Positions 6,896 through 63,952 of a DNA stretch of 64,000 bases are shown piece by piece (position 1 is the stretch's first letter; each line of letters opens with the position of its first letter). Made by a program: the position numbers and the translations under genes. The DNA comes from a virus. The stretch lies in IMG/VR virus record IMGVR_UViG_3300034418_008897, positions 1-64,000 of that record. The stretch is one strand, 5' to 3'. The notes beneath the pieces were generated by a model. That model saw only the letters and a program-made list of their open reading frames with translations. It was not told where the DNA came from and ran no database searches.

Positions 6896-8986
6896 TTATT
6901 CTAGATTAGATAAATTTACACCTATAGGGCTTATTGAAGTTTTTCCTGGATTTTCTAATTGTTGTTGTAAACTCATTTGTTGTTTTGCAACATAAGAATC
7001 CATCATTTTTGAATTAGATCTTGCAGGTATAACTATTTTATAGGCAAAAACTTCAGGTTCATCTGGGTTGTTGACCCAACCTACAATCAAAGGATCATAG
7101 TCTAAAGTTTTATCTGGTTGTACTATTTTACCTAAAAAAAGATCTACCATATCTGACATCGGCTTTACTAAATTTTCTTTTGTTACAGGAACATCATCAT
7201 CAAAAAATTTAGATGTGGAATAAGCAGTAGCTATATAAACTCTTTTTATTGTTACATTTTCTGGTAAAAAAGATTTTAATATTTTTTGATATTCTTGCTC
7301 ATAAGCTTCTGTTCCTTTTTCTGCGGTTATATTTTTAATTTTATTTGCATACTTTAATTTTTGTTCTTTTGACATAGTTAGATCAAAAACACTACCGTCA
7401 GCATTAATAGGTAAATAAGCCCCTTTTAAAGTATTTTTGTCTATAATACTACCACTTAATAAATCAACATGACTATCCCAAGGATCACTACCTGATACTT
7501 GACTAGCCCTTATATTAGTTGAACCTATAGTAGCTTTTGATAAATCAGCAATTTTATTAAATTCAGTTTCATTTTTTAAATAAACCTTATTTCTTTTTTG
7601 GTTATTAGCATCTGCTTGTATATAATCTTTTGCTTCATTAGCATCTGTATTATAGTATGCTGCTTGTATATATTTATTTCCTTTTAAAACATTTAACCCA
7701 TCTATAGTCTGCAATTCAAACTCATTAGCATCAGACCAATCCTTACCAGGACCTTCTAACTTAACTGCTCCAGTTAATTCTGCTATAGCCCCCGCTTTAA
7801 CTACTTCAGTATCATAAATTTTAGTGTAATCACCAGGCATAGTTACTTGGTAACGTTTTAAATATTCGTATTGTAAAATATTAGTTATTTGTTTTTCTTT
7901 TTCTTCTTCCGTTTTAGCATAAACTTTTTCATACTCACCTGTAGGATTTCCATATTCATCTAGTATAGGATCTCCTTTTTTGTATATTAATTCTTTATTT
8001 CCGTTTTCATCTAAAATAGGCTTTCCGTTTTCATCTTTTTTAATTTCCATTAAAGGCATAAAAGCTAATTTAGCATCAAAATATTTTTTAACTTTAGGGT
8101 CCATATTTTGCAATAAGCTTTGAAAAGCAAAATCTATATTTGTTTCATTAGTTCTTTTTCCTCTACTTTGTGTAAAATTCTCTAATATTTGACCAGTAGC
8201 ATCTGCTTTACCCCCTTGTGTAATTTTTGAAATATTATCAGTAAATCCTACATCGTTAAATGCTTTATCTATCCATTCATTTTTAATATATCTATAACTA
8301 ACACCATCTCTAAGGTTACTAATTATATCTCTATCACCTCTAAAATTAATATCTTCTGCCCTTAAATTAGCAACATCTTTATAAGTTAAAAGCTTAATTA
8401 ACTTCCATTGATCTCCTCCTTTTCTAAGTTCTTCAGGTGTTAAGTAAGAATAAGTTGATTTTTTATTACCTTCTTCATCCTCAATTAGAACACTAGCTAA
8501 AAATCTACCTTGATCATCGTAGTAATCAGAATTAGCTCCGTCTTGTTCATTTAAAGCTTTTATATTTTCTTTGTAAGCTTCTTCTTGAGCAAGATCGACC
8601 CTTTGTTGGGTATTTAAATAATATTCGTATTTACTTCTCAACTCAAAGTATTTATCTGTCTTTTCAAAACCATCTACATTATTTAGACCCCATTGAATTT
8701 CATCAAATAGTTGTTTAGCTTTTGTTTGAGTATCAAAATTATCTATAGGCAACCCCACAGCTTCAGGGTATTTCATTTCAGGTAATTTACTGCTTTTTTC
8801 TTTTTTATCACTAGCTGTTTTAGCAGTACTAGCTTTATATTTTTGTAATAAAGCAGAAGGATCATAAGGAGTATAAGGTATAGGCTGTATTTGATAAGTA
8901 GCGTAAAACGGTATATCTCCCCCTGTTTGAAATTTATTTATTTTTCTTCTCTTGATTTCTCTGTTTGAACGGAATAATAACGACAT
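6896..8986 (-). CDS. Putative ejected cargo protein (696 aa), tagged N-terminus
   Basis: Long ORF directly before the giant cargo gene, as in crAss-like cargo clusters; starts MSLLFRS...KINKFQTGG. Confidence 0.6.
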   Translation of the reverse strand: MSLLFRSNREIKRRKINKFQTGGDIPFYATYQIQPIPYTPYDPSALLQKYKASTAKTASDKKEKSSKLPEMKYPEAVGLPIDNFDTQTKAKQLFDEIQWGLNNVDGFEKTDKYFELRSKYEYYLNTQQRVDLAQEEAYKENIKALNEQDGANSDYYDDQGRFLASVLIEDEEGNKKSTYSYLTPEELRKGGDQWKLIKLLTYKDVANLRAEDINFRGDRDIISNLRDGVSYRYIKNEWIDKAFNDVGFTDNISKITQGGKADATGQILENFTQSRGKRTNETNIDFAFQSLLQNMDPKVKKYFDAKLAFMPLMEIKKDENGKPILDENGNKELIYKKGDPILDEYGNPTGEYEKVYAKTEEEKEKQITNILQYEYLKRYQVTMPGDYTKIYDTEVVKAGAIAELTGAVKLEGPGKDWSDANEFELQTIDGLNVLKGNKYIQAAYYNTDANEAKDYIQADANNQKRNKVYLKNETEFNKIADLSKATIGSTNIRASQVSGSDPWDSHVDLLSGSIIDKNTLKGAYLPINADGSVFDLTMSKEQKLKYANKIKNITAEKGTEAYEQEYQKILKSFLPENVTIKRVYIATAYSTSKFFDDDVPVTKENLVKPMSDMVDLFLGKIVQPDKTLDYDPLIVGWVNNPDEPEVFAYKIVIPARSNSKMMDSYVAKQQMSLQQQLENPGKTSISPIGVNLSNLE

Positions 8987-9040
8987 ATTCTTATATAAAA
9001 GTTTAAAAGATTATATTAAAAGTGGTAATATTTTTAAAGT

Positions 9041-9068
9041 AAAAACCCCAGACCGAAGTCTAGGGTTT
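9041..9068 (-). terminator. Intrinsic terminator with cUUCGg tetraloop
   Basis: Minus strand AAACCCTAGAC-TTCG-GTCTGGGGTTTTT, just after the stop at 9097. Confidence 0.8.
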
Positions 9069-9096
9069 GTTATCTCTCAGTAAAAATTTATAGTTT

Positions 9097-10323
9097 TTAT
9101 ACTTTAAAATTTGACTTTAATTTTGTGTAGTTTTCTTTTGCTGAATTTAATTCCTCTAAAGCCTGTTGAATTTTTTCAGGTTCATATTTTTGAGCATAAA
9201 CGTAATTATTTTTTGCCTTTAAATAATTATCATAAGCTAATTGTTGATCCATTAGTTGGCTTTCTGCTTGGTATTGTTTAGAAACTAATTTATTTTTCCA
9301 AACTCTATCTTGTAAATTTGCAAAAACAGTACCTAGATTTTGATATAATTGGCTGAATCTATTTTGTTCAGCTTGTGCTTCTGCAATATCTGCTTGATAT
9401 CTAGCTTGTTCATTAAGATTTTCTGCGTCTGTTCTATAAGCTTCGTTTTGAGCTATTTGTGCTTTTTGTTCATTTACAGCTTCATTGTAAGCTTTTAATT
9501 CGTTTACATTGAAAAGATTTTCTCTAGCAGCTAGTTCTCCTTTGGCTTTTTGAAGGTTAGCTTCTGTCATAGTATTAAGAATACCTGCTAATACTGGGTC
9601 ACTAGTTAATTTAGGGGTTCTAACTTTAGATATTGCTTCATTTTCAGCCCAAGTATTTAGCTTTCTAGGAGCTAAGACTTCATTTACAGGGCCTTTCATA
9701 GCTTTTACTTTCATAGGTTTAACACTAGCCACAGGGTTTTTAAACGCTTTGTAAGCTAAAATTCCTTGTGCAATATCTCCAAAACCTATAGGTATGTTAG
9801 GAGTATTTTCTCCTATAAACCTGCCAGCATCACCTGCCCCCTTTGTTATTAATCTACCTGTATTACCTGCTAATCTTTTAGCATTATCTAGAAGAGAAGG
9901 GTTTGTTGGTTGGTCTCCCGATAACTCTAATCCAGGTGCTGTCCACACTTTATCTCTTCTAGGTAACTCATCTACAGCGGGTTTTCTAGAAAGGCCTCTA
10001 CGAGGTAAATCTAAATAACTTCTATCTGCTAAAAATGGATTACCTAAAGTTAAATCACTTTTGTAAGGACCATCACCAGCAAATTTATATTCAGACATAT
10101 CTCCAGAATAAGGAAATAATTTTTCTCCGGGCTGAAGATTAACTCTCCCACTATTAGATTCTGGTAATGTCAATGAATTAGTATAATATTGTTGCCAATT
10201 ACTTCCAGAGCTAGGCTGAGAGAAAAAATAACTAGAAGGTATGTAGTTTAATTTAGGTTTAGGAATTAAACTACTCAACCCTCCGTCAGCTTTTAATACT
10301 AATTTTTTATTACTTTTATACAT
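9097..10323 (-). CDS. Putative ejected cargo protein (408 aa), coiled-coil C-terminus
   Basis: N-terminal KKLVLKADGG variant of the tag; Gln/Ala/Asn-rich helical C-terminal half; lies in the cargo cluster. Confidence 0.55.
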   Translation of the reverse strand: MYKSNKKLVLKADGGLSSLIPKPKLNYIPSSYFFSQPSSGSNWQQYYTNSLTLPESNSGRVNLQPGEKLFPYSGDMSEYKFAGDGPYKSDLTLGNPFLADRSYLDLPRRGLSRKPAVDELPRRDKVWTAPGLELSGDQPTNPSLLDNAKRLAGNTGRLITKGAGDAGRFIGENTPNIPIGFGDIAQGILAYKAFKNPVASVKPMKVKAMKGPVNEVLAPRKLNTWAENEAISKVRTPKLTSDPVLAGILNTMTEANLQKAKGELAARENLFNVNELKAYNEAVNEQKAQIAQNEAYRTDAENLNEQARYQADIAEAQAEQNRFSQLYQNLGTVFANLQDRVWKNKLVSKQYQAESQLMDQQLAYDNYLKAKNNYVYAQKYEPEKIQQALEELNSAKENYTKLKSNFKV

Positions 10324-10373
10324 ACTTAACCCGTTAGAAGTAATCTTCTTTAATTTTTATATTTACTATAATA

Positions 10374-10679
10374 TTATAGTAATTTACCCCCTTTACGGAA
10401 TACTGGAGTTTCGTAGTTCATACGACCACCGTTTCTCATAGCTGGTTGAGCTTCTTGTGCTCCTCCCATCATTTCTAACAACATATCACAAATAGCTACA
10501 GCAATTTGAGGATCTCTTGTCTCAGCATACTGCATCAACATTCCTTCAATATCTGGTCCTTGTTGTGTTGGAGCTTCAGCCATTTCTGGAGCAGCAGCTT
10601 CTGGAGCCATTTCTCCACCCATTTGAAATTTACCAACTTTATTTTGTGTTCCGTAAACTTTTAAATAATCTTTTGACAT
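10374..10679 (-). CDS. Small (101 aa) internal virion protein carrying three tag copies
   Basis: KFQMGG, AMRNGG and VFRKGGKLL; has its own AT-rich upstream region. Confidence 0.6.
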   Translation of the reverse strand: MSKDYLKVYGTQNKVGKFQMGGEMAPEAAAPEMAEAPTQQGPDIEGMLMQYAETRDPQIAVAICDMLLEMMGGAQEAQPAMRNGGRMNYETPVFRKGGKLL

Positions 10680-11612: not shown

Positions 11613-12272
11613 TTAATTAGTTACGTAATCTTGTTCTTGATTATCGTGTATATCTAGTATTTTTAAAATAGATTCAGCTAATCCATTAGTGTCCCCCTTT
11701 TTAAATTTATCTATAAGTTCTTTAGTATGTTCTCTACTGAAAATAGTAACGCCAGAATCTATATTAGCAACTACATAACCATTTTCATCTAGAACCTGTA
11801 GTCTATCTTCTTCAGGTTTTACATCATCTATTTTTACTTTGTAGATTTTTTCTCCGACTAATTCAAAAGAACCACCTTCTTTAAATTTTCTTACACCTTT
11901 AGCTTGCACATCTAAATGCTCAAATGGTTCTATTTTTTGCCCTACTCTAAGATTTAACTCCTCTACAACTCCTTGATTTAATTCTAAAACCATTGCGCTA
12001 TTGTACATAGCAGGAACACCGGTTTTATCATTTTTATTTAAAGAAGCTGTTTGTAATATTGTCCAATTTTCATCTAAAAATAAAAAATCTAAACCAAAAT
12101 TCATATCTTTCATTACCATATGAACTCTCATAGGTTGAGGGAAAATAAATAACATACCCTTACGTTCCCCTAAATAATCTAAACCAGATAAACCTTTAGC
12201 CTGAGCCTCTGGAGTATCTGCAATAGCTACATCAAAACGAATGTTTTTTATTTTTAAAGGGTATAATGTCAT
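11613..12272 (-). CDS. DUF192-family domain fused through the tag (RKFKEGG) to a C-terminal domain
   Basis: VAIADTPEAQAKGLSG...GMLFIF...MKDMNFGLDFLFLDE...VLELNQG matches DUF192. Confidence 0.75.
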   Translation of the reverse strand: MTLYPLKIKNIRFDVAIADTPEAQAKGLSGLDYLGERKGMLFIFPQPMRVHMVMKDMNFGLDFLFLDENWTILQTASLNKNDKTGVPAMYNSAMVLELNQGVVEELNLRVGQKIEPFEHLDVQAKGVRKFKEGGSFELVGEKIYKVKIDDVKPEEDRLQVLDENGYVVANIDSGVTIFSREHTKELIDKFKKGDTNGLAESILKILDIHDNQEQDYVTN

Positions 12273-13831
12273 TATAATAAAGATTTAGAATAATCGTATG
12301 TATTTTTTTCCAATTCTTCATGTAAAAACTTACCCAGCTCTTCTATGGCTTTTTTATCCCCAGCTTTAGCTTTTTTTCTAAGCTCTTGTATTACTTGGCT
12401 GGAAGCAGCGTTTACCATAAGCTCTAGGCTTTCAACTTCAGCTAATTTTTCAGCCCCGCCTTTTTTCATTTTTACAACTGGTAGTCCTTTATCTCCTTTT
12501 ACACCTGTATTATTTTCTTCTTCGTGGGAAGGACCTGCTAAAATTACATTTTCTTTTTTTAAATCCAGTTCCCCACCTCTTTTAAATATAGGTTTGCAAC
12601 CACAAGATGATTTAACAGCTTTACCGCCTTTTTTAAATTTTATTTTACCACCGCAAGAGCAATTAGGTTTTGCTTCTATTTTACCACCTTTTTTATAACT
12701 GGTAGGCATTATATTTCTTTTTTGCTCTTTTTGAGAAGCTATTTGTAAAATGTTAATAACTATTTTTGGGTCTATATTTAATTTAGCAGAGATTTTTTCT
12801 GGTTCATTACCATCTTTATATAAACTAACAACAGTACTAATAGCTTGTTTTTGTTGGTCTTCAGTTAAAGAAGATAAATCCAAATATTCTTTTTTAGGAA
12901 CATTTTCCCCTGTTACATTATTTACAAGCAAAGAGCTCTGCATTTTTTGGTAAGGGTTTTTAAATGTAGGTATTTTAGGTAAAGTTGGCATTGCTAATTT
13001 ACCACCTTTTTTAAACATAGGTTGTTGTTCTAACCCTTGTATTTGTTGCATTTTATATCTATCCCTTGCTTGAATACCATATTTAGTGTTTTGTTTCTTT
13101 ATAAGCTCATTGGCTCTATTTATAGCATCTTTCTGCTGGTTTCTTTCTTCTAACACTTTTTTCTTTTTAATAGATCCACCAATAACACCGCCTATAGCAC
13201 CACCAACAGCTCCTATAGCACCACCAACAAGACTACCTACACCAGGTAGTATCATACCACCAATAGTAGAACCCGCAGACATTCCTTTACCAGCCCATTC
13301 CAAAGCTTGAGAACCTACATAACCTTTTAAATTATCTCTTTCTAAAGCTTTATCTTCTAATTTTTGACCAGCAAATCCCATACCAGCCCCAGCCAATCCT
13401 ATACCTAAGCTTGCAGCGGCAGTACCCACAGTACCAACTTTACCAATACCAGTAGCAGCTTTTACAGCTCCGTCTTTACCTATTTTTAAACCAGTAGCTA
13501 TTTTAGTACCAGCTTTTGCAGTTTCTCTGGCTGCGGCTAAAGCTTTTGCTCCAGCTATTGCAGTAGTAGTTGCTTGGCTTATAGCTTGTTGTTTATCTCT
13601 CTGTACTTTATAAGGATCTACTTTATATTCAGGTTTAGCAATTTGTGCTTGTTCTACAAATCCTGATGGATCATTAGTGATTGGCGTTGTGCTAGGTATA
13701 CTACTAGAATAAGAAAAATTATTATTCTTTTTCTTTTCACTCGGCTTATATAAAAGCGGAGATGACCCCGAACCGCCATAAGGGCTGATTGTAGGGTACA
13801 TTGATCCAGCGTTAAATCTGTTGTTATTCAT
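12272..13831 (-). CDS. Cargo protein with glycine-zipper TM segments (putative ejection-channel protein) and four tag copies
   Basis: GSLVGGAIGAVGGAIGGVIGG zipper; MFKKGG, YKKGG, KFKKGG, IFKRGG; GPSHE and AEVE motifs near the C-terminus. Confidence 0.65.
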   Translation of the reverse strand: MNNNRFNAGSMYPTISPYGGSGSSPLLYKPSEKKKNNNFSYSSSIPSTTPITNDPSGFVEQAQIAKPEYKVDPYKVQRDKQQAISQATTTAIAGAKALAAARETAKAGTKIATGLKIGKDGAVKAATGIGKVGTVGTAAASLGIGLAGAGMGFAGQKLEDKALERDNLKGYVGSQALEWAGKGMSAGSTIGGMILPGVGSLVGGAIGAVGGAIGGVIGGSIKKKKVLEERNQQKDAINRANELIKKQNTKYGIQARDRYKMQQIQGLEQQPMFKKGGKLAMPTLPKIPTFKNPYQKMQSSLLVNNVTGENVPKKEYLDLSSLTEDQQKQAISTVVSLYKDGNEPEKISAKLNIDPKIVINILQIASQKEQKRNIMPTSYKKGGKIEAKPNCSCGGKIKFKKGGKAVKSSCGCKPIFKRGGELDLKKENVILAGPSHEEENNTGVKGDKGLPVVKMKKGGAEKLAEVESLELMVNAASSQVIQELRKKAKAGDKKAIEELGKFLHEELEKNTYDYSKSLL

Positions 13832-46474: not shown

Positions 46475-47125
46475 TTATTCTATTGTTCTATATATAACAT
46501 CTTGTGCTTCATCATTTAAAATCCAGTTACCCACACCTTCTAATTTATAAGCGTAAGGCACTGTGCTTTTTTCTCTAGTTACAGTTTTATTACCATCTTT
46601 ATCTGTAGTAATTACAGTAACATATTTATAAATAGCATCTTTAAACTCTTTTGTTGGAGAGTTTTCTTCAAGTTCTATTTTTGGTTTTAATTCTTTAGAA
46701 GGAGAAATCTCAACAATAGATAAAGCCGCCCTCATTGGCATCTTATCTACTTTAGGCTTTTCTTTTTTAACTTCTTCAATTTTTGGAACAGAAGCTGCAA
46801 CAGTTTTTAAAACTACTTTTTTAGGTTGCTTTATATCTTCAAAACTGCTTATATTAAACGGTTGATTATTTTTAGCTTCTAACCTTTTAATAGCTGGTAC
46901 TATAACAGTAGCCTCATAAGATCTATTTTTTTCAGTATAATCTTGGTATGCTTTAACTTTTTCCTCTTGAGTATTTAAAGTTTTTAATTTAGATTCTAAT
47001 TCTTTAAAATAATTAAAAACTTTTGCGCTATCCGCTTCACTTTCTTTTAAGCCAGTTAAAGCTATGGGGTCTGTTGTGTAATAAACCCCGCTTGTACCAC
47101 TCTGATATTTTTTTAGTAGTGACAT
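46475..47125 (-). CDS. Tagged hypothetical protein (216 aa)
   Basis: Starts MSLLKKYQSG; abuts the portal stop. Confidence 0.6.
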   Translation of the reverse strand: MSLLKKYQSGTSGVYYTTDPIALTGLKESEADSAKVFNYFKELESKLKTLNTQEEKVKAYQDYTEKNRSYEATVIVPAIKRLEAKNNQPFNISSFEDIKQPKKVVLKTVAASVPKIEEVKKEKPKVDKMPMRAALSIVEISPSKELKPKIELEENSPTKEFKDAIYKYVTVITTDKDGNKTVTREKSTVPYAYKLEGVGNWILNDEAQDVIYRTIE

Positions 47126-53491: not shown

Positions 53492-55228
53492 TTAATTTTG
53501 TTTTTGATAGATAATTTTACCGTTTTTTATTTGTTTTATTATATTACCTTTCGAGTCAAAAAAATCTATTACTCTAGAATCTGCCCCTAAAGTATTATCT
53601 AAAACTTCTTGCTCTCTAGATACAGGGTTTGTTCTTCTTGAAATATAGGGCTCAAATCCTTCTTCTATAGTAGTCTTTATAAATCTATCTTTATAATTAG
53701 AGTTAGTTTCTATGCTTTTTTTCATTAAGTCTCTTGCTGATTTTTCCCTTAATCTAGTTGCTTCTTTTAATTGATTAAACTCATCTAAATTTCTAGGCAT
53801 ACCAAGGCGAACAGAGTTAAAACTTTGAGGTTTTTCAACAGAAAGAAGAGTTGGTTGTTTTGCTTTTTTAATTGGGTATTTTAAAGCCATTACAGCAACC
53901 GGGTCTATCATTACATCAGCGATGGTATTAGTAACAGGATTATTTATTCCTTTGCTTTGTAAATAAGAACTTGGAGTTAAATGTTTGTTATTTGTAAACG
54001 CAGACATCATCATGTTTTGAGGAATGCTAAACATATCTAATAAAGTAGTATTATTAGATAATTCTATTTTTTCTGTACCAGGTTTATTATTTCTTAAATT
54101 ATCTTCGTAAATTTTATTTTTAACATCTTCTTCTTGTGCAGGTATAGCATTTTTATTTAACTCTGCTGCACGTTTACCATCTGGATCTTTAATTGGAACA
54201 TATCCGTTTGTTTTTCCAGGAATATTAATCATCCAACCAAATGCACCTTTCTGGTACCTTACACCTGGTCTACTTGGGTAGGTGTAGGTAACTGGACTTG
54301 TGCCATTTTGGTATTTTTTAATGTATAAAATTCCGCCTTTGCGAGCCATCATTATTTTATTTTTATTATTTGTATTAGCAATAGTATTAAAAATTTCTAA
54401 TAAATCATTGTCATTAAATCTCTGCTCTAATTGTTCAAGTTGATTTCTCCCATTTATACCTTTCATTTTAGCTTTTATTTTTTCTAAAATTTCCGGGGTC
54501 ATTGTTTCTGTATAAGGATCGAAAATGTTATTATCTTTTGCAAATTGCAATATTGCATCTTTTCTAGCACTTATTTCTTCTAATCTACCTAAATAATTTA
54601 ATTCCTTCAAGTTATTAATAATATGTTGCTTGCCTTGGTCGGTTTTTAAAAAATCTTCATAAGGCATCGACATAAAGAAATTATTTTCTTGTTCATATTT
54701 TAATTTAGCGTTTTGTGCTAATTTTGTGTCTTTAAAAAGCTCATATGCTTTATAAGGATTATTGTAATCAAATATAATTGCTTTTGCTTCAGGCATTTTT
54801 TCTGGCGTTGCAATTTGCCACTTTTGGTAATCATATTTTGGGAATGTATGGCCAGTTTCATTACTATTAGACATATGTCTATATTCATGAGTTTTAACAT
54901 AAGGATTATAATCTGGCATATTTGTAAACAAAGTAACATTTCTTTTACCTTCATAATAATTAGGGCTAGGATTAGCTTCCCCTAATACATTTGATAAAAT
55001 AGGAGGTTCATTTGTTTCAAAATCATTTAAATTTTTTAACCTTTCAGTTATTATTTCATCTGCTTTCAGTTGTAATTCTTCTTTATTTAAATTTGGAAAA
55101 TCTTTACTTAAAGAATTCAGTAATAATTCTTTGTGTTTAGGTGAATTAAACCAACCTTCTAAATATTCTTTTGAGTCGCTTGGGCTAACTAAAGTATTAC
55201 CTTTTTGATATTTTTTTAATAATGCCAT
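53492..55228 (-). CDS. Tagged two-module protein: zincin-like HExxH metallopeptidase + second module
   Basis: Starts MALLKKYQKG; THEYRH and a later EEISAR; internal MARKGGILYIKKYQNG junction. Confidence 0.7.
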   Translation of the reverse strand: MALLKKYQKGNTLVSPSDSKEYLEGWFNSPKHKELLLNSLSKDFPNLNKEELQLKADEIITERLKNLNDFETNEPPILSNVLGEANPSPNYYEGKRNVTLFTNMPDYNPYVKTHEYRHMSNSNETGHTFPKYDYQKWQIATPEKMPEAKAIIFDYNNPYKAYELFKDTKLAQNAKLKYEQENNFFMSMPYEDFLKTDQGKQHIINNLKELNYLGRLEEISARKDAILQFAKDNNIFDPYTETMTPEILEKIKAKMKGINGRNQLEQLEQRFNDNDLLEIFNTIANTNNKNKIMMARKGGILYIKKYQNGTSPVTYTYPSRPGVRYQKGAFGWMINIPGKTNGYVPIKDPDGKRAAELNKNAIPAQEEDVKNKIYEDNLRNNKPGTEKIELSNNTTLLDMFSIPQNMMMSAFTNNKHLTPSSYLQSKGINNPVTNTIADVMIDPVAVMALKYPIKKAKQPTLLSVEKPQSFNSVRLGMPRNLDEFNQLKEATRLREKSARDLMKKSIETNSNYKDRFIKTTIEEGFEPYISRRTNPVSREQEVLDNTLGADSRVIDFFDSKGNIIKQIKNGKIIYQKQN

Positions 55229-55252
55229 ATTATTATATATATTATAAATATT

Positions 55253-55438
55253 TTATTTTTTCAAGTTATGTATAGAATCTATTATATAATTTAAACAAGT
55301 ATCATTATATTTAACGTAATATTTAGCAAATTTTGTTAAGTTATTTATATTTTCCGGGCTAGCATCTGCCATATCCCCTTTTAAAACTTCAGGTAAATCA
55401 AAATTCATATTACTTATTTCCTTTGTTATAATTTTCAA
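55253..55438 (-). CDS. Hypothetical small protein
   Basis: Fills the gap between two payload genes; start uncertain. Confidence 0.4.
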   Translation of the reverse strand: MKIITKEISNMNFDLPEVLKGDMADASPENINNLTKFAKYYVKYNDTCLNYIIDSIHNLKK

Positions 55439-57626
55439 GGTCTTTTTTTACTCTGTCCATATGTCTTTTTGCCATATAGCCTAGAGGAATACTTGTTGCG
55501 CCAAGCAAACCAGCAGCCCCCTTTATAAACTTATTATTTGAAGCTTTATCCCAGTCTCTAAGCACATCCATTTGCTTTGTATTAGCTGCATTTTTAGTAC
55601 CCAACATAGTTAATTTAGCTGTTGTTTTTTGATTATCTCCTAAAGTACCTGGAGAAAATTCTTCAATAGTTTCAATAAGCTTATTGCCTTTATGATCAAA
55701 AAATTCACCTGAATCGTTGTAATATATTCTATTTTTCAAATCAAAAGGTTTACCACCTGTTAAAGAAGAAACTTCAAAATCTCTGACTTTATTAGGTAAG
55801 AATTTCATCTTTTTTAATGGTTGTAAATCCCATGTATCTGTAAAATCAATAAATTTTCTACCTTGCTCATCTACACCTTTTGTAATCCAACCATTACCAT
55901 GCACACCACCAAAATTTAATTCTTTTTCAATTTCCATAGTACCAAATGATTTTTTAGGATTATCTATTATTTTTTGCAGTTTATTCTTCTCTAATTTAAA
56001 ATCATTCAGCGCTAATGTATTATCTGCGTTTTTAGAGAAAGTATTAAACTCAGGTTCTAATCCGTTGTATAATCTCCAAGAATCAAATCTATTTTTAGTA
56101 GCGTAAGTTTTTGGCTTAAACTTCAAAGCTTTAGGTGTTATTACTTCTAATGGGGCTCCAGCTACTGTAAATAAATCATAACCTATAGGAGTTATAGATC
56201 TATTAACAATTTTACCTAACAAATTATTTTTAGCTTGCTTTGTATAGGTTTTCATTATTTCTTTTTGTCTCTCAGGACTAAATCTAAAACCAAAACCTTC
56301 ATATTTATTTGTAAATTGATTCCATTTAGCATCATTATATTTTCTTTTTAAACCTTTTAAAAAATCACCTTTGGGGGCAACAATATCTTCTCCAAGATTA
56401 ATTAAATCTTGTGGAGCTACATGAGAAGCTACTCCATGAATAAAATCTACCTTATTTACATTTATATTTTTAAGTTCTGGATTTAATTTTACTAAAGATT
56501 CATATACAACATTTAATTCAACTGGCTCTACAAGTCCTGCTTGAGATCTTCTAGCAAATTCATTTAATCTATTAACATCAACTCCTTCTGGTAAAACATA
56601 GTCATGCCCAAATTGAGGATTTACAAGTTTTGATTTTTTAATAGAAGGTTCAAATTTTTTAGTAACAAAATTATAATAGGAATCAGAATTCTTTTTAATA
56701 GCATCCACTGCTCTATAATGTACAGGATCTATACCTACTTGAGTCTTAGCAGATTGTAAATTATATTTTGGAAATTTATATTCAAAATTAGGTGAGCCTG
56801 GTAGTTGTTTAGTAAAATTATTAGCTAATAAACCCCTAGCATCATCTGCATATTTACCTAATACTTTACCGCCTAATCTTACCACATCAGGAGCCTTGTA
56901 TAATAATCCTGCAGGAGCTGTAACTATACCCGGCAAAGAAGCTGCATTTAAAGTATTTGGTGTGTATCTACCTGATAAAGCATCTCCTAATGTAGTAGGT
57001 TGATCGGCATTAGTAGCATATTTCATAACAAATGAACCTGGTATATCTGCAAAAGAAAGAGCATCAGCAGCATTTCCTAATTTTTGCATTACACCTTTAG
57101 GGTAGTAATATTTCGCTTCTTCAGCTGGAGTTAATCCTTTTATATCAGGTGTAAAAGTCGGTCCTTGCTTTCCTGTTAAATTTAAGAAGCTGTTAGCTGC
57201 GGATACTGCTCCACCTTTGGTTCTTGCCCACAATGAAGGCTCTATATATTTAGCATATTTAGAGTTAGGCATTGCTTTAGAAAGAATCTTAGCGTTAACT
57301 AAGTTATTCATTATAGACTCTCTATCTGTAAGATCTATATTATTTTCTTTAGCATACTGCTCTATAACATAATTATTTCTATCATAATCATATCGATTGT
57401 GTATCCTTTGTTCAGCTTGCTCAGGAAAATTTCTTTCGTTTACATTAAATAAATTTTGTAGTCCTTTATTACCTTTGTTTAAGTAATTATCTTTTTCATT
57501 TATAAGGTAATCACGATAAGGATTTTTAGAATTATAATCATTATAATACCTAGTTAAAGGAGTTATAGATGTTTCCTTTAACGTCTTTCCTTTTTGGTAT
57601 TTTCCTATTTTATTATATAACATCAT
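55410..57626 (-). CDS. Tagged multidomain protein (738 aa), unknown C-terminal domain
   Basis: Starts MMLYNKIGKYQKG; central Ala/Gly hydrophobic stretch; globular C-terminal domain (DTWDLQP, GGKPF); hydrophobic tail. Confidence 0.7.
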   Translation of the reverse strand: MMLYNKIGKYQKGKTLKETSITPLTRYYNDYNSKNPYRDYLINEKDNYLNKGNKGLQNLFNVNERNFPEQAEQRIHNRYDYDRNNYVIEQYAKENNIDLTDRESIMNNLVNAKILSKAMPNSKYAKYIEPSLWARTKGGAVSAANSFLNLTGKQGPTFTPDIKGLTPAEEAKYYYPKGVMQKLGNAADALSFADIPGSFVMKYATNADQPTTLGDALSGRYTPNTLNAASLPGIVTAPAGLLYKAPDVVRLGGKVLGKYADDARGLLANNFTKQLPGSPNFEYKFPKYNLQSAKTQVGIDPVHYRAVDAIKKNSDSYYNFVTKKFEPSIKKSKLVNPQFGHDYVLPEGVDVNRLNEFARRSQAGLVEPVELNVVYESLVKLNPELKNINVNKVDFIHGVASHVAPQDLINLGEDIVAPKGDFLKGLKRKYNDAKWNQFTNKYEGFGFRFSPERQKEIMKTYTKQAKNNLLGKIVNRSITPIGYDLFTVAGAPLEVITPKALKFKPKTYATKNRFDSWRLYNGLEPEFNTFSKNADNTLALNDFKLEKNKLQKIIDNPKKSFGTMEIEKELNFGGVHGNGWITKGVDEQGRKFIDFTDTWDLQPLKKMKFLPNKVRDFEVSSLTGGKPFDLKNRIYYNDSGEFFDHKGNKLIETIEEFSPGTLGDNQKTTAKLTMLGTKNAANTKQMDVLRDWDKASNNKFIKGAAGLLGATSIPLGYMAKRHMDRVKKDLENYNKGNK

Positions 57627-57628
57627 TT

Positions 57629-60142
57629 TTAATTTTGTTTTTTATTCCAAGGGTTATAAAGTAAAGATCCTAAACCTATTGGAGCTAATGCCTTATATAT
57701 ATTAGGGTTAGTCATGTCAAACATTCCATTATTACCTATTAAAGATTTAAGTCTATTGTTACCTTTAAAGAATATTACATCATCCCCTATATCTTCTCCT
57801 GGTTTTAACTTTAAAGAATTATCATAATTATCTACAACATTTTTAGCTGTAAAAGAATCGAACCCTTGTTTTTTATATCTTTCTGCTAATTTATTAGTAG
57901 TAAGAGGCGAAGTTTCACGAGCATTAGGATCTAAAAAATCATTTTTTTGGATTGTCATATCTTTTTTATAAGGGGCAGATTCAGGTAAAGATTTTAAATA
58001 TTTTTCTGCTGCTTGTTTTGATCTAAATGTATTTCCTTCTGGAGACAGCATATTACCAAAAGCATCATATTGCATACCTTCTTTATTATTAGAACCTACG
58101 ACATAACCACTTTTCTTACCTATCCAACTATTTCCTTTATAATCTACAGATTTATTTTTACCTAAATTTGCTCCTAATTCTAGCACCTTACCTTTATCCC
58201 CAGCATAAGTTTTAGCTATGTTTTTGTTAGTAGTCGTAAAAATTAGGTCAGGGTATAAATTTCCACTAGTTAATCTTTCTGCTTTACTTAAATCAAATTC
58301 TGTTAAATCTCTAGCTGGAGTTCCGTGGTATAGTACATTTTTATACATATTTTCAGCTTGTTTTTCCCCCCCTGCAAATCTTGTTAAATTTTTAGATTTC
58401 ATTTGGACAAACTGTTCTGGACTACCGTTGAATTTAGTACCGTCACTATATTTCATCCATGTTCCATCAGCTTTAGCTTGTTGCTCAATAGCATTATACT
58501 CTTGCATTAAAGCTTTATTTTCTGGTATTTCTTTATTCCATTTACCCCAATCTATTTCAGATTTAAAATCTTGAGTAGGTAATAAATCAGATAAGTATTT
58601 ATTTGTATTGATTACTTTAGATTTATCTGCTTTTGCTACTACTTCATCTATACTGTTTTTCCATTCTGTTATATCGTATTTAGCACCGCGTTTTTCTATT
58701 CTTTTTACAAACTCATCTTTTGGTATATTTATAATTTTATCAAAAGAGTCTAAATTATTCCTTAATAAGTTTGTATTTGATGTAAACAATACTTGCCCTT
58801 TACTTTTAGCTTCTTTTTTAACTTCATCAAATAAAGACTGCATCATTTGATTATATTCTTTATTCCATACTTCATTACCTCCGTTCTTTACTTGATATGT
58901 AGAAATATTATACTTTTTTGCAATATCATTTACTGAATTATTTATAACATCTGCATAGTCATCATCTAAAGATAAAAACCTATTGTCACCGGCTTGCTTT
59001 AAATAACTTTTACCTATAGTTGGATGACCAAATATAATTTCATCTGTGTTATTTATTACCGGTTCAAAAACACTTCCTGTAGCTTGCCCTACATCTTGAG
59101 CTTTTGCTCCTACAACTGCTTTATTATAAGCTTTTCTAACAATTGGATTATATTTTGCACTAGCTGGGTTTAATTGAGGCACTAACACAGATCTGAAATC
59201 GTTAGCTACACTAGTTGGAGTGGAACTAATCCTAGGAATTATTTTATTACCTATAATATTGTTTAATTTAGAAGAGTTGCTTAACCTCATAGTTTCCAAA
59301 GCAGCGCTTTCTCCCATGTTCATTAACCTACCAGAACGACCAATTAATTTAGTACCTGGTATAAGATCTAAAGCCGTAAATGCCGTTGAAGTTAAAGCAT
59401 TTTGCCAATCCTCCATTTTACCGCTTTTTATTGCTTTTCTTATGTCCTCTTCAGTGTAAAGAGCATCATTACCAGCATTAATTAAAGCAGTAGTTGGGTG
59501 TAAATATGAAGCTGCGTTTAAACCTTTTAAAACAGTGTTATTATCAAAAACGGGATCTGAAAATCCAGGCGATCTTTCCATAGCACTATAATTCATAGGC
59601 ATATTGAAAGGCCCAGGTTTTAAAAAATAAGCTGTTGCTACTAGAGGGTTTCTAATTATGTTTCCAGCTTTATCTGCCCAAGTATATTCAGGAGCCGATT
59701 GTATTGTCCCAGGATCTTTCGGATATACCATTGCTGGTATATAACTATCTATTTTGTTTGTATCTAATAGGATTTTAGCTTTATCTTCTTCAGACAACCA
59801 ATTAGCATTTTTAATTTTATCTACTACTATAGATCTTTCAGCAGCTCTTCTTTTTGAACCCTCTTCAACTATATTAGCAGCTGTATTAGCTATAAGTAAA
59901 TTTTTTGGTTGAGTTGATTCAGCAACTTCTACTCTAGGTAAAGAATTAAAATTAGCTGTATTAAAATTAGAATAAGGTATAGCGTTCTTATTTAATTCTG
60001 CTGTTCTTTGTTCTACATTTCCAGCAGTTAATGGTAAATATTTACCATTAATTTCTTTAAACCATTTATCTCCTTCTTTCTTATAATTGTGGTTATTATA
60101 TCTATAATACCCGCCGTCTTGATATTTTTTTAATAATGCCAT
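57629..60142 (-). CDS. Tagged polyvalent protein: P-loop kinase + ADP-ribosyltransferase-like (ART-PolyVal type) domain
   Basis: Starts MALLKKYQDGG; IIFGHPTIGKS; VLYHGT...FD...IFTT.NK.IAKTYA...GFDS...KSLIGNNGMFD..NPNIY. Confidence 0.72.
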   Translation of the reverse strand: MALLKKYQDGGYYRYNNHNYKKEGDKWFKEINGKYLPLTAGNVEQRTAELNKNAIPYSNFNTANFNSLPRVEVAESTQPKNLLIANTAANIVEEGSKRRAAERSIVVDKIKNANWLSEEDKAKILLDTNKIDSYIPAMVYPKDPGTIQSAPEYTWADKAGNIIRNPLVATAYFLKPGPFNMPMNYSAMERSPGFSDPVFDNNTVLKGLNAASYLHPTTALINAGNDALYTEEDIRKAIKSGKMEDWQNALTSTAFTALDLIPGTKLIGRSGRLMNMGESAALETMRLSNSSKLNNIIGNKIIPRISSTPTSVANDFRSVLVPQLNPASAKYNPIVRKAYNKAVVGAKAQDVGQATGSVFEPVINNTDEIIFGHPTIGKSYLKQAGDNRFLSLDDDYADVINNSVNDIAKKYNISTYQVKNGGNEVWNKEYNQMMQSLFDEVKKEAKSKGQVLFTSNTNLLRNNLDSFDKIINIPKDEFVKRIEKRGAKYDITEWKNSIDEVVAKADKSKVINTNKYLSDLLPTQDFKSEIDWGKWNKEIPENKALMQEYNAIEQQAKADGTWMKYSDGTKFNGSPEQFVQMKSKNLTRFAGGEKQAENMYKNVLYHGTPARDLTEFDLSKAERLTSGNLYPDLIFTTTNKNIAKTYAGDKGKVLELGANLGKNKSVDYKGNSWIGKKSGYVVGSNNKEGMQYDAFGNMLSPEGNTFRSKQAAEKYLKSLPESAPYKKDMTIQKNDFLDPNARETSPLTTNKLAERYKKQGFDSFTAKNVVDNYDNSLKLKPGEDIGDDVIFFKGNNRLKSLIGNNGMFDMTNPNIYKALAPIGLGSLLYNPWNKKQN

Positions 60143-60147
60143 AATAC

Positions 60148-61953
60148 TTATTTTGCAAAGTTTTTAGCAAAATTAGCCTTCTTGACCATCTTACTACTAT
60201 ATTTATTCTTATTAGCTAAAATATGGCTAGCTGCTTCTTGAACATCCATGCCCATTTTTGTAGCTTGCGCTTTAAATGTACCTTTCTTTTCAGGATCTAT
60301 TTTTATAGTATTTCCTTTTTTATATAAAAGACCACCTTTTTTAAAAATTGCAGTTTGAGGTATACTCTTACCTGCTGTTGATCTTATATAATTATCTAAA
60401 TTATACATGGTTTTATTTACATACTTATTTTTTGTGGCATCACCACGCAATAGTACACCTGGACTACGCCAAGCAGTTGCCCATCTTTCTTCAGGGCTTA
60501 ATTCTACATTACCCTCTGCTTGCCTATAAACTTCACCGTTTTTTACACTGTATAAATTGCCTTGATTGGGGTAGTATTTTTCTACTTCTTTTCTTAATAA
60601 AGCAGTTTTATATTGATCATCAACGTCATAATTTAAGAATACTCTTTTACCATTAGGTAGCATATAATAACCATCAAATGTTTCATCTGGTTTTTGAAAT
60701 GAACTACCTCTTAAATCCCTGGAAAAGAATTGCTTAGGTGAAGACCACATACCAGGAGCTTCTTTACTTTTAATAACCCTAGGATTTTCATTACCCCTAT
60801 TATATAAGCTCTTAGAAGATTTATCCAATTGGCTCAAATATATCATAGAAGCTAAACCAGCTTTATAAGGATCTTTTAAATCAGATCTAGATCTAATACC
60901 ATATTTATCCGCTATACTCGCTAACCTAGGGTCGTTAAAAATATTATCTGGGTTTATTTGAGTCATACCTATACTACTACCTACTAATTCTGAAGCATAC
61001 CCTTTGATTCCCTTCAAAGATTTACCGCCTTTGGTTTCGGTCATAGCAGTTGCGGTTAAAAAGTTAACCATTTGTTTGTATTTATCTGGGTCTAAATTTA
61101 AATCTTTAGCTAAATTATTTGCGTGTTGAACTAAAGCTAAAGTAAAATTACCTAAATCATGAGTTAAATATTTTTCCCCCTCACTACTATTATTTACTGC
61201 TTTTTCAAAACCAACTGATTTTTTAATTTTATCATAAGGATTTTGCACTTCAAAATCGTAGGATTTATTTTGCTCATCAAAAAACTTTTGAAAAAATTCT
61301 CTATTTAAATTTAAATTTTCTTCTGGTGCTATAACTGTTTGCAAATTATATTTTTTCCACACTTCTCTAGCTTCTGATAAAGTATATAATTTTTTATCAT
61401 AAGCATCCATTAATATAGATTCCCCAGTATCTTTATCCCATCCTACTTTGATCATAGTATGGTTAGAATTTTTATAGCCTTTGGCTTTAGAATAACCATA
61501 TGGGTGCATATCTTGATCAGGTCCCCATAAATAAAAAGTACCTACAGGGGTATCTAAATCAAAATTTTCATTTCTATTTTCATCTAAAATATTGTAAAAA
61601 GTCTTACCACTATCTGCGTATACCCCTGCTAAATCCCAACTGTCTACAGATCCCTTGTAATCACCTTTTAAATAAGGGTATTTTTCTATTTGTTCTGGTG
61701 TTGGTTGAGTAGATGTTGTCAATAAACCTCTAGCGTTTTCTATATCACCTATAGTTTTTACTCCAGGAATATAACCTAAACCTTTAGTATATAACAAACA
61801 AGCGTCCCCTTTACAATTACCCAGAGTACCTTCTAACATATTATCTCTAAAAAAGTCAGAATTAGCTCTGTCTTCTGCAGTATAAATTACTTTATCTATG
61901 CGAGTATTAAATCCTTTACCTGGTTGAAATTTTTTTACTTTGTTATATAGCAT
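60148..61953 (-). CDS. Tagged dual cell-wall hydrolase (papain-like Cys/His domain + lysozyme/SLT-like domain) with basic C-terminal module
   Basis: Starts MLYNKVKKFQPG; GDACLLY...DSWDL...NHTMI; ATAMTETKGG...SIGMTQI...DLKDPYKAGLASMIYL; IFKKGGLLYKKG precedes the last module. Confidence 0.6.
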   Translation of the reverse strand: MLYNKVKKFQPGKGFNTRIDKVIYTAEDRANSDFFRDNMLEGTLGNCKGDACLLYTKGLGYIPGVKTIGDIENARGLLTTSTQPTPEQIEKYPYLKGDYKGSVDSWDLAGVYADSGKTFYNILDENRNENFDLDTPVGTFYLWGPDQDMHPYGYSKAKGYKNSNHTMIKVGWDKDTGESILMDAYDKKLYTLSEAREVWKKYNLQTVIAPEENLNLNREFFQKFFDEQNKSYDFEVQNPYDKIKKSVGFEKAVNNSSEGEKYLTHDLGNFTLALVQHANNLAKDLNLDPDKYKQMVNFLTATAMTETKGGKSLKGIKGYASELVGSSIGMTQINPDNIFNDPRLASIADKYGIRSRSDLKDPYKAGLASMIYLSQLDKSSKSLYNRGNENPRVIKSKEAPGMWSSPKQFFSRDLRGSSFQKPDETFDGYYMLPNGKRVFLNYDVDDQYKTALLRKEVEKYYPNQGNLYSVKNGEVYRQAEGNVELSPEERWATAWRSPGVLLRGDATKNKYVNKTMYNLDNYIRSTAGKSIPQTAIFKKGGLLYKKGNTIKIDPEKKGTFKAQATKMGMDVQEAASHILANKNKYSSKMVKKANFAKNFAK

Positions 61954-61968
61954 ATCTTTTTTTTTGTT

Positions 61969-62862
61969 TTATTTTTTATACAATAAACCGCCTTTTTTGA
62001 ATTTGTAAGTTTTAACAGCTTTAGCATATTGTCTTTCAAACTCAGGGTTAGATTTATATAAAATTTTATTTACATAATCTCTAGTTTCTCTAGGTAGCTC
62101 GTTCATCCACTCTTTCCCTTTATAAATATCTACGCCTTTTTTCTTTTGTTCATTCAAATATTCTAAAAAATTACCTCTTCCATGGTTGTAAGCTGCTAAA
62201 GTTTTAGCTAACCTTATCTCATTAGATTGATTAGGTTTATTAATGAAAGATGCATTATACAAATCAGTCATGTACCATTTCTGAATCTTAGCACTAACTT
62301 CAGGATCATATAAACTATCTGTAGATTTTATTATTCCTGCTTTTACAGCATCCCCCTTTACATCAGGCATTATTTGCGCTAAGCCAGCAGCACCAGCGGG
62401 AGATACTGATTTAGGGTTAAAGCTAGATTCTTTAAATTGTTGTCTTAATAAAAAATCATTAGTGAATATTTCAGAATTTACTTTAGGCTCTGCTTTAGGC
62501 TCAGGTTTAGCATCTGATACAAGTTTAGGCTCAGAAGAATCTTTAATATATCTTTCTGGTTTTTCTGGTTCACCAAAGAAAGACTTACCATAAGCAGGTA
62601 CATCTGTTCTTAGTTGTGTAGATGGTAATCTAAGCTCATCATTTAACTTTGATTTGCGAGATCCATCGGGGTCTTTTATAGCTACATAGTAACCATTAGT
62701 ACTTTCATTCTTTATAAACCAATCATCAAAAGCATCTTTCATATAAGTAGATCCTGGTCTTTCAGGGTGTACATATATTTTTTTATCGAAAATATCTGCT
62801 TCATTTATAGTTCTACCTGGAGCTTTAGGTTTTGGTTTTTTATCGTTGTACAATAAAGACAT
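61969..62862 (-). CDS. Tagged lytic transglycosylase (SLT domain)
   Basis: ATG at 62862 (MSLLYN) preferred; KESSFNPKSVSPAGAAGLAQIMP, LAAYNHG, LPRETRDYVNKI; ends FKKGGLLYKK. Confidence 0.9.
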   Translation of the reverse strand: MSLLYNDKKPKPKAPGRTINEADIFDKKIYVHPERPGSTYMKDAFDDWFIKNESTNGYYVAIKDPDGSRKSKLNDELRLPSTQLRTDVPAYGKSFFGEPEKPERYIKDSSEPKLVSDAKPEPKAEPKVNSEIFTNDFLLRQQFKESSFNPKSVSPAGAAGLAQIMPDVKGDAVKAGIIKSTDSLYDPEVSAKIQKWYMTDLYNASFINKPNQSNEIRLAKTLAAYNHGRGNFLEYLNEQKKKGVDIYKGKEWMNELPRETRDYVNKILYKSNPEFERQYAKAVKTYKFKKGGLLYKK

Positions 62863-62870
62863 AATTAAAA

Positions 62871-63125
62871 TCAATTCATTAAACTAAATTTTTGTCTGTA
62901 AGCTAATTTCTTACTAACTACCTCATTATCAGCAATTTCTCTTACAGAACAAAATATAATATTTTCTTCTCCATACTTATCATACATATTTTGTATAGCT
63001 TCTACAGGATGTTTTCCTTCTCTTAAAAGCTTAAGATGTACAGAAACACTAGCATTAAAATCTTGAGTAGTATTAATGTAGATGTACTCATCTTGTATAC
63101 TAGTTATGTAGTAAAGAGTTGCCAT
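62871..63125 (-). CDS. Degenerate GIY-YIG-like protein
   Basis: TLYYIT...YIYINTT...HLKLLREGKH....IQ.MYDKYGEENIIF. Confidence 0.6.
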   Translation of the reverse strand: MATLYYITSIQDEYIYINTTQDFNASVSVHLKLLREGKHPVEAIQNMYDKYGEENIIFCSVREIADNEVVSKKLAYRQKFSLMN

Positions 63126-63142
63126 AGAAATTTATAGTAAAT

Positions 63143-63179
63143 AAAAAAGAAAAAACCAGAATAAATTAATATCCTGGCT
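63143..63179 (-). terminator. Intrinsic terminator
   Basis: Minus strand GCCAGGATA-TTAATT-TATTCTGGT followed by TTTTTCTTTTTT. Confidence 0.65.
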
Positions 63180-63205
63180 GAAATTTTTATATGTAAAATA
63201 ATAAA

Positions 63206-63952
63206 TTAAAATCTATATTTTAAACCTGCTCTGATATTATAATTAGAGTCGTATTTACCTTTATCATATCTACCTTCTAAATTACCTGATAATTTAGGCG
63301 TGAAATATTTTTCGGCATTAATATTAGCGCCTACTCTGTAGTTTTCATTCTTACCTAGACCTTTTTCAGCGGAAGCAGAAACCCCTAAATAACCATTCTT
63401 CAAAGGCACTCCTTTATTAACATTATAGCCTAAAGAAAAGCTAGGGCGGCTTATACCTTTATATGTCACAAATTCAGGAAATCCGGGTGCACTAGGTATT
63501 TTATCCATAGCGTAGTTAGCCTCAGCCTTGACCCCTAGGGACCCTAAATTTTTAGGTAAGTCTTTGTATAAACTAGACTCGAACCTATTAAACTCTTCTA
63601 TCTGCGGATATTGTTCTATTATTTTTTCACCATTTTTATCTACATCTTCATAAATTCTCATTCTCTTTGCCTTCTCAAGGCTAGCCATACCATCAACTCT
63701 AAAACCTTTAGGCAAAGCAGCACCAGCACCACCCATTTTCATATAGTCATTGGGAGCTTCTAATCTTTCTTCATGGCTCCACCCATAAGCAGTAGGATTC
63801 CATCTACCAACAGGAGCTGATAAATTTATCCTAGGTTCTTCTTTTTCTACTAAAGGGCTGGTATTCATAAACTTATGTTTAAGGTCTAAATCCTTTATAT
63901 AGGAATTTATAGTACCTTCTGTTTGATATTTTTTAGTATATAGTAAAGACAT
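63206..63952 (-). CDS. Tagged protein with outer-membrane beta-barrel-like C-terminal half
   Basis: Starts MSLLYTKKYQTEG; amphipathic strands; ends YNIRAGLKYRF. Confidence 0.6.
   Translation of the reverse strand: MSLLYTKKYQTEGTINSYIKDLDLKHKFMNTSPLVEKEEPRINLSAPVGRWNPTAYGWSHEERLEAPNDYMKMGGAGAALPKGFRVDGMASLEKAKRMRIYEDVDKNGEKIIEQYPQIEEFNRFESSLYKDLPKNLGSLGVKAEANYAMDKIPSAPGFPEFVTYKGISRPSFSLGYNVNKGVPLKNGYLGVSASAEKGLGKNENYRVGANINAEKYFTPKLSGNLEGRYDKGKYDSNYNIRAGLKYRF

Follow-up and report, generated by a model that had tools for sequence, protein, structure and literature searches.

In this study of the first 64 kb of an 80.5-kb virus contig of freshwater metagenome origin (IMG/VR record IMGVR_UViG_3300034418_008897, positions 1 to 64,000; hereafter the window), in which the genes follow the order of a divergent crAss-like phage, we found that a short lysine-rich peptide containing an aromatic residue and a Gly-Gly pair recurs at the ends of, and inside, many late proteins. 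Our data support the view that this tag is a portable mark, selected at the peptide level and shared by many unrelated late proteins. On circumstantial grounds, it probably marks proteins that are carried in the virus particle. Tentatively, we read it as the docking mark of the ejected cargo modules of this clade, acting like the capsid-targeting sequence (CTS) of phage T4. The tag and its tie to the crassvirus cargo protein gp45 are new; in the literature searched, we found no paper mentioning these motifs in phages.

The full motif is a joint, Phi-K-K-G-G / L-L-Y-K-K / Y-Q-x-G-G. Its N-terminal form (M-S/A-L-L-Y/K-..-K-K-Y/F-Q-x-G-G) and its C-terminal form (Phi-K-K-G-G-L-L-Y-K-K-stop) are halves of this one joint, with the right half standing at N-termini and the left half at C-termini. 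The whole joint is found inside a protein of 578 amino acids (aa), and a merged version inside proteins of 601 and 206 aa. Ten N-tagged proteins are encoded in the window and two more past its end, and in most N-tagged genes the tag starts at residue 2 or 3. Eight consecutive tagged genes (53492-66121) are located upstream of the small and large terminase genes (TerS and TerL). A module of about 45 aa follows the tag in four proteins, at 59957-60142, 54143-54352 and 62623-62862 of the window and at 2636-2824 of the relative L001. The tagged genes and the tag sites are the following.

53492..63952, minus: six tagged genes upstream of TerS/TerL, encoding proteins of 578, 738, 837, 601, 297 (lytic transglycosylase, SLT) and 248 aa
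63955-65379 and 65384-66121 of the contig: two more tagged genes past the window end (474 and 245 aa)
63914..63952, minus: N-tag MSLLYTKKYQTEG of the 248-aa protein
62848..62862, minus: half-tag MSLLY at the N-terminus of the 297-aa SLT protein, then the 45-aa module; the ATG at 62862 is the most likely start of the protein
61972..62001, minus: C-tag FKKGG-LLYKK-stop of the SLT protein
61918..61953, minus: N-tag MLYNKVKKFQPG of the 601-aa protein
60316..60345, minus: internal joint FKKGG-LLYKK(G) of the 601-aa protein
60110..60142, minus: N-tag MALLKKYQDGG of the 837-aa protein, disordered in the structural model and followed by the 45-aa module
57588..57626, minus: N-tag MMLYNKIGKYQKG of the 738-aa protein
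55199..55228, minus: N-tag MALLKKYQKG of the 578-aa HExxH protein
54299..54343, minus: complete internal joint RKGG-ILYIKK-YQNG of the 578-aa protein, separating its HExxH domain from the 45-aa module
47096..47125, minus: N-tag MSLLKKYQSG of a 216-aa protein adjoining the portal gene (the L019 orthologue begins MILYKKYQTGG)
37125..37145, minus: internal LLYKKGG joint of the 206-aa DUF5872 protein, a gene boundary in L021
36861..36902, minus: C-tag WKKGGILNSLIYKK-stop of the DUF5872 protein
12455..13015, minus: five Phi-K-K/R-G-G copies in the 519-aa protein
11871..11885, minus: FKEGG behind the DUF192 domain of a 219-aa protein, the weakest instance
10614..10679, minus: N-tag ..NKVGKFQMGG of the 101-aa protein (orthologues KHQMGG and KHQAGG)
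10377..10400, minus: C-tag FRKGGKLL-stop of the 101-aa protein (orthologues FRKGGRLAV-stop and FKLGGKL-stop)
10279..10323, minus: degenerate N-tag MYKSNKKLVLKADGG of the 408-aa protein (orthologues MYRLIKKYQTGG, MLDYLKKYQTGG and MSQAIRKYQTGG)
8918..8986, minus: N-tag MSLLF..IKRRKINKFQTGG of the 696-aa protein, which is encoded immediately upstream of the giant RNA polymerase (RNAP)-like open reading frame (ORF; 1-6870)

All the instances listed in an earlier, sequence-only reading of this DNA were recovered at their positions on the minus strand. That reading had counted about 13 unrelated tagged proteins; the tag is carried by 15 ORFs of the whole contig, whose products are unrelated by BLASTP save for the 45-aa module and one C-terminal module shared among them. 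It had also counted four copies in the 519-aa protein, where the number of Phi-[KR]-[KR]-G-G copies is five. The 578-, 601- and 837-aa proteins have a multi-domain look; above Pfam thresholds, only SLT, DUF192 and DUF5872 were recognised among the tagged proteins, the LPD23 and SprT leads being weak. PHROGs gave no useful match for ten tagged proteins.

By shuffling each protein of the 97 ORFs of the contig (2000 shuffles), we found that K[YF]Q.[GE] occurs within the first 25 residues of 10 proteins for 0.06 expected, with none of the 2000 shuffles reaching 10. Away from the N-termini, the same pattern is not enriched (1 observed, 0.65 expected). The other elements of the joint were also overrepresented, with 11 copies of [FYWM][KR][KRE]GG for 0.26 expected and 5 of GG[LIV]L[YIN] for 0.4 expected. 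Tagged ORFs are confined to the late, minus strand of the contig, with 15 of 57 there compared to 0 of 40 on the plus strand (Fisher p = 1.4e-4). We did not find the tag in the major capsid protein (MCP), portal, TerL, TerS-like, ring, muzzle, fibre or lysis proteins of the contig, which agrees with what had been noticed from the window, and in the relatives it never stands on the conserved head, ring, muzzle or fibre orthologues.

We then extended the counts to the clade. Through TerL, 16 IMG/VR relatives were retrieved (68-88% identity), and two larger related contigs, G001 and G003 (MCP 74-75%), bear the tag on a wide variety of proteins. Among 472 clade ORFs, there are 42 N-tags for 1.24 expected, 9 C-terminal Phi-K-K-G-G motifs for 0.14 expected and 18 C-terminal LLY motifs for 4.5 expected, which extends to related genomes the enrichment seen in the contig. 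The same proteins tend to bear both an N-tag and a C-tag (odds ratio 16, p = 2.6e-9). Based on about 15 related contigs, the 41 N-tagged clade proteins fall into at least 22 BLAST-unrelated groups. At the nucleotide level, 27 distinct N-tags use GGG, GGT, GGC and GGA for Gly, AGT and TCN for Ser, TTA and CTN for Leu, TAT and TAC for Tyr, and AGA and CGT for Arg. Such a free choice of synonymous codons indicates that selection acts on the peptide, and the amino-acid motif is kept across phages of 29-36% GC. A strict DNA pattern for MxLLYKKYQxG gave no match, and a looser one gave 10 stretches, several of them spurious.

The tag is also conserved on proteins whose bodies have diverged. Orthologues with only 25-45% identity retain it, including those of MT835470, whose MCP is just 40% identical; the 101-aa family retains it at both ends, and the 408- and 696-aa families retain it as well. 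Insertion sites of tagged genes in the late operon differ between genomes (after the portal gene, beside DUF192 or among the ring genes). In two relatives, proteins are split exactly at the joint. First, in L011 the part of the 601-aa protein that follows the joint is a 66-aa gene of its own starting with MLLYKKGG, and the gene before it ends with FKKGGKLLYKK. Second, L021 encodes the DUF5872 protein as two genes, separated at the internal LLYKKGG, and both new ends have an LLY element. When the tag and the 45-aa module were modelled together with AlphaFold2 (AF2) from an 8-sequence alignment, the module folded as four strands and a helix with a predicted local distance difference test (pLDDT) score of about 80, while residues 1-9 of the tag stayed below a pLDDT of 50, the GG forming the boundary. 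The low score of the tag in this model would fit a flexible linear motif. Foldseek found no PDB fold match for the 45-aa module, and for the 519-aa protein AF2 gave no usable model (pLDDT 34).

The link to virion cargo comes from the crassvirus crAss001, whose virions carry gp45 (cargo protein 1, C1), gp46 and three RNAP-associated proteins according to mass spectrometry and cryo-electron microscopy; the portal-binding residues of gp45 are 425-552, and those that contact the tail barrel are 214-245 (PMC10172136). In a profile comparison with hhalign, the module behind the joint of the 601-aa protein proved homologous to a gp45-family module (probability 97.3%, E = 2.6e-11) that is present once or twice per protein of that family and is also matched by standalone genes in relatives. 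Both share the signature GG-x-IHIK..KGxFT..FAxNxxxW, which sits in the 601-aa and not in the 519-aa protein, and the alignment pairs GG-LLY-KK-GG of the tag with GG-YLY-ED-GGG of the DAC15 homologue. For the 519-aa family, the best PDB match of the profile was crAss001 gp45 itself (7qog_M residues 113-189, E = 9.7e-7), over an N-proximal G/A-rich transmembrane segment and then a Lys-rich stretch, a compositionally biased region; a short 16-residue GxSHEEN match to the portal-binding domain of gp45 was also found (hhalign E = 0.017). These similarities make the 519-aa protein a probable counterpart of gp45.

The modules of the gp45 family are themselves bounded by aromatic-x-x-GG motifs, the CARG1 domain (424-555) opening at NAFGG and FAYGG coming a few residues past its end. 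Aromatic-x(1,2)-GG is enriched in crAss001 gp45 and gp47 and not in crAss001 structural proteins. The termini of gp45 are tag-like, with ..IKRRGKMPPNIFDTGG (..NIFDTGG) at the N-terminus and ..KKKKGLTYG-stop at the C-terminus; those of the cr85 homologue are ..INRYDDGG and YSKGGKLKKRRGGLTY-stop, and the p-crAssphage RNAP-associated protein begins with MDVLKFLQGG. Moreover, the cr85 gp45 homologue includes a lysozyme/SLT module, to be compared with the separate tagged SLT gene of the window. As for gene position, the 519-, 101-, 408- and 696-aa genes have the tail/lysis genes on one side and the giant ORF on the other, but fibre and lysis genes separate them from the muzzle gene; the 101-, 408- and 696-aa genes stand directly upstream of the giant RNAP-like ORF, the place where crAss001 encodes gp45 and gp46. 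Between the joints of gp45-family proteins, we also noticed a segment KKKPYPSV..DFAG..RSYPIPT..DA.DALRLAGLHG (crAss001 gp45 ~285-315); the tagged 245-aa protein past the window end aligns weakly to this region in p-crAssphage gp47.

A profile of the tag and the 45-aa module retrieved 339 representative proteins at E<=1e-3. Many of these span 1000-2900 aa, and the module in them often has an aromatic-x-x-GG joint directly before it. Among 147 related modular representatives, [FYWM]-x-x-GG occurs 569 times compared to 115+-11 in shuffles, about five-fold more, with the wider consensus [YF]-[AKQ]-[DNE]-G-G-x-[LI]-[Y]; Pfam found almost nothing on the five large representatives searched. At three examined loci of other crAss-like phages, the gene right behind the muzzle gene encodes a relative of one joint-rich protein, and two or three further such proteins come next. 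In another crAss-like lineage (loci L052-L064), where 3-4 large joint-rich proteins follow the muzzle gene, these proteins have basic N-termini (M..KVRIK.LPQA.TG[YF]QV.G or MKRRVRIYK..G.G.Y.NKTAQFL) and acidic C-termini (..EI..Y...GYIVEEI-stop and ..F[IM]A.GGE[VI]E[YF]L-stop). Judged from these sequences, the termini look like a second lineage-specific end code, and in fused homologues the acidic element and [YF]Q.GG form internal joints. Given that joint-rich proteins of other lineages have shared ends of their own, the duality of end-tag and joint is a general property of the proteins of crAss-like cargo blocks, of which the window shows an unusually uniform, Lys-rich and highly dispersed version.

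The explanation that we tentatively favour, and that may well be right, is that the tag is a docking mark working like the CTS. In gut crassviruses, aromatic-x-x-GG joints would string modules within one cargo chain, gp45, and in the freshwater clade many modules would be separate late genes that keep the halves of the joint at their ends. The tag would then be a flexible docking peptide that recruits each module, from either end, into the procapsid or a cargo bundle through a common receptor. Candidates for such a receptor are the acidic LDDLH termini of the protein in scaffold position, a small LDDLH protein in the array, the portal or other cargo. An acidic motif L-[DE]-D-L-H-[DSN]-[DE]-[DE] is present at both termini of the scaffold-position protein (43267-44433, minus) and at the N-terminus of a small conserved protein within the tagged array (60 aa; 53308-53490, minus), and also in the relatives L008, L009, L011, L012, L018, L020, L022, L023, L027 and G003; crAss001 gp31 has similar acidic ends. 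This motif is opposite in charge to the basic tag, so that an LDDLH protein could serve as a receptor or adaptor.

The internal proteins of T4 are diverse and have nothing but the CTS in common, which places them in the scaffolding core (PMC3012670, PMC8442874). The resemblance to our tag lies in about 10 residues common to unrelated, fast-evolving proteins from a variable locus, and the precedent is that the T4 peptide alone loads proteins, foreign ones included, into the scaffolding core for injection. However, the T4 sequence is N-terminal only, whereas the tag is N-terminal, C-terminal and internal, the latter two being significantly enriched; the T4 sequence is removed by the prohead protease gp21; and the two have no sequence relationship. 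The resemblance between K-T-Y-Q in the CTS and K-K-Y-Q in the tag is probably a coincidence and was treated as such. In short, the address tag proposed in the sequence-only reading is supported in part: the mark is portable, is absent from shell and tail proteins and is linked to gp45 by homology and gene position, but a simple T4-like N-terminal address does not suit a motif that stands equally at C-termini and between domains. What we infer is the presence of tagged proteins in virions and their docking.

Several observations weigh against such a docking mark. First, and against a simple T4-like address, no hit to Peptidase_S77, Peptidase_S78 or ClpP was obtained at E<=1 in the contig, whose 80.5 kb include the whole TerL-to-MCP head module. 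Second, the match between the 519-aa protein and gp45 depends on the biased transmembrane/Lys-rich segment and on the 16-residue motif, PF25725 (crAss_CARG1, portal-binding) was detected neither in the 519-aa protein nor in the whole contig, and the gp45 termini resemble the tag weakly. Third, a comparison of the 408-aa family with the gp45 profile showed no similarity, and the 696-aa family had no match to gp46 by BLASTP of crAss001 proteins against the contig ORFs, no profile comparison having been run; for lack of such similarity to gp45 and gp46, the cargo status of these two families is positional only. Fourth, the giant RNAP-like ORF, an expected cargo, carries no tag. Finally, the internal copies of the motif and its abundance in large fused proteins would suit a linker or a cleavage joint equally.

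That the motif is a cleavage joint is the main rival explanation; it is unlikely, although it has points in its favour, and it may coexist with an address role as in T4. Phi-x-x-G-G, with L-L-Y as a spacer, would be the recognition or cleavage site of a peptidase borne by the cargo, which would cut multi-module cargo and trim terminal propeptides before packaging, in the head or after injection. The positions of the motif coincide exactly with domain boundaries, and fused proteins are split there in relatives. Several processing proteases of viruses and bacteria typically act at GG-type sites. There is also a candidate peptidase, the tagged 578-aa protein with an HExxH in its N-domain and weak SprT/zincin/LPD23 leads, although the zincin call is itself weak (Pfam found nothing and Atlas scores were below 0.9). 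In addition, KP06_gp45 of p-crAssphage is annotated as a fusion of an RNAP-associated protein with a zincin, and polyvalent phage proteins have been proposed to be processed by zincin-like peptidases (PMC5512222). However, the main text of the crAss001 paper names no cleavage or protease, its authors treating the tail and capsid segments of gp45 as one chain bridged by intervening residues (PMC10172136), and no prohead protease was detected in the contig. Moreover, terminal tags that have nothing to release are strongly conserved, and the LLY element on both new ends of split genes is not needed by a pure cleavage site.

A variant of the docking explanation, which we hold to be rather improbable, is that the tags form a cargo train, the C-half of one protein pairing with the N-half of another, or both binding a multivalent hub. 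If true, the covalent module chain of gp45 would be reproduced non-covalently, and a changeable set of effectors would be loaded and threaded single file through the portal and tail. Lineage-specific versions of such an end code would then make it possible to read from sequence which proteins crAss-like phages inject. An analogy, and no more than that, is offered by the docking domains of modular polyketide synthases and non-ribosomal peptide synthetases, where short terminal peptides on consecutive proteins correspond to the intra-chain linkers of fused homologues; unlike the nearly uniform tags, however, those docking ends are pair-specific.

We consider it doubtful, to a similar degree, that the tag is a passive linker, that is, a domain cap and Gly-Gly hinge of an ancestral modular cargo protein of polyvalent type whose terminal copies are unrecognised leftovers of gene splitting. 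Such a relic would be consistent with the abundance of the joint inside the large modular proteins of other lineages (569 against 115), with the disorder of the tag in the AF2 model and with the interchange of fused and split forms. Yet it is hard to reconcile with the conservation of the terminal copies, which persist on bodies diverged to 25% identity or unrelated. The N-tag also starts from residue 2-3 in most tagged genes, the specificity of L-L-Y, K-K, Y/F-Q and G-G goes far beyond the needs of a hinge, and genes inserted at different places of the late operon gain tags.

It is very improbable that the tag acts as an address after injection, by which effectors, once delivered or synthesised in the cell, would reach a single structure of the host (membrane, peptidoglycan, nucleoid or a host protein). 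Its basic and aromatic composition would allow it, and several tagged proteins may act on the envelope (the SLT protein and those labelled beta-barrel-like in the initial reading), but the tag has no hydrophobic core like that of a signal peptide, and the cargo gene block and the gp45 modules point to the virion. A shared host destination is also unlikely because the predicted activities differ (peptidoglycan, putative peptidase, NTPase-like, DUF5872 and DUF192).

We give virtually no credence to a nucleotide-level element, be it a Shine-Dalgarno-like AAAGGAGG, a 5' translation enhancer or a translated recombination linker for cassette shuffling: AAAAAAGGAGG can encode K-K-G-G and the motif flanks cassette-like genes of a variable array, but the C-tags lie ~33 nucleotides off the next start codon, and the synonymous variation in the 27 N-tags rules this reading out. 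A transglutaminase-type Q/K cross-link was also dropped, the Q not being conserved in the wider joint family and no such enzyme having been seen.

Returning to the docking mark, two other known systems can be set beside it. First, crAss001 gp45 (PDB 7QOG; PF25725; PMC10172136) shares one homologous tag-flanked module and, with the 519-aa protein, a transmembrane and Lys-rich architecture; gp45 is however a single 842-aa chain, whereas here the modules are mostly separate genes with Lys-rich and far more uniform tags. Second, there are the polyvalent proteins found in phages and in conjugative elements, which are predicted to be processed by zincin peptidases of their own (Iyer et al. 2017; PMC5512222). 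These proteins resemble the tagged set in delivering many effector-type domains with the DNA, such as peptidoglycan hydrolases and zincin peptidases, and the joint-rich relatives of the tagged proteins are likewise large multi-domain proteins. In contrast, the domains are here spread over an array of single genes with common end-tags, and the words "linker" and "glycine" do not occur in PMC5512222.

As for the phage itself, all long ORFs of the window are on the minus strand, and its GC content is about 31%. Its portal and muzzle proteins match crAss001 gp20 and gp44, and its MCP (41757-43172) has 40% and 37% identity with two unannotated human-gut phage records and 21% with the crassviruses of the International Committee on Taxonomy of Viruses. 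Metatranscriptome contigs covered the tagged genes in a patchy, low-depth manner; DNA carry-over is possible, and they were not used for expression. A 193-aa domain is common to the giant RNAP-like ORF (residues 1982-2163) and the tagged 837-aa protein (residues 347-529; gene 57629-60142), with 34% identity (E = 6e-19) and a weak nSTAND3/phrog_4182 match; a search of related loci with the N-part of the giant ORF found none. Among the ring and tail genes lies a ferritin-like protein (188 aa, 37478-38044). A 195-aa protein encoded between the TerL and portal genes (49502-50089) has an N-domain like Cpn10/GroES and is kept in all relatives. An untagged patatin-like phospholipase gene (MK..GGG[IY]RG...) stands within the tagged arrays upstream of the terminase genes in L009, L011, L013, L021 and L023 and is not in the window. 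Finally, the structural genes of MT835492.1 (L005-L007) are broken under translation table 11, with the MCP in three pieces, and a stop codon has probably been reassigned in this phage.

Among the phages of the gut, crassviruses are the most abundant, and they eject a large protein cargo. If the tag is indeed a sequence mark of this cargo, genomes alone would suffice to predict the injected proteome, which in this phage would comprise a lytic transglycosylase, a putative metallopeptidase, and NTPase-like and barrel-like proteins, among others. The variable gene arrays next to the terminase genes would be explained as exchangeable payloads, and the tag would offer a handle for loading foreign proteins into such phages. 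As the end-tags of split genes can be linked to the joints of gp45, our findings suggest that the joints of this known cargo protein have a function, and such a role is directly testable in cultured crAss001.

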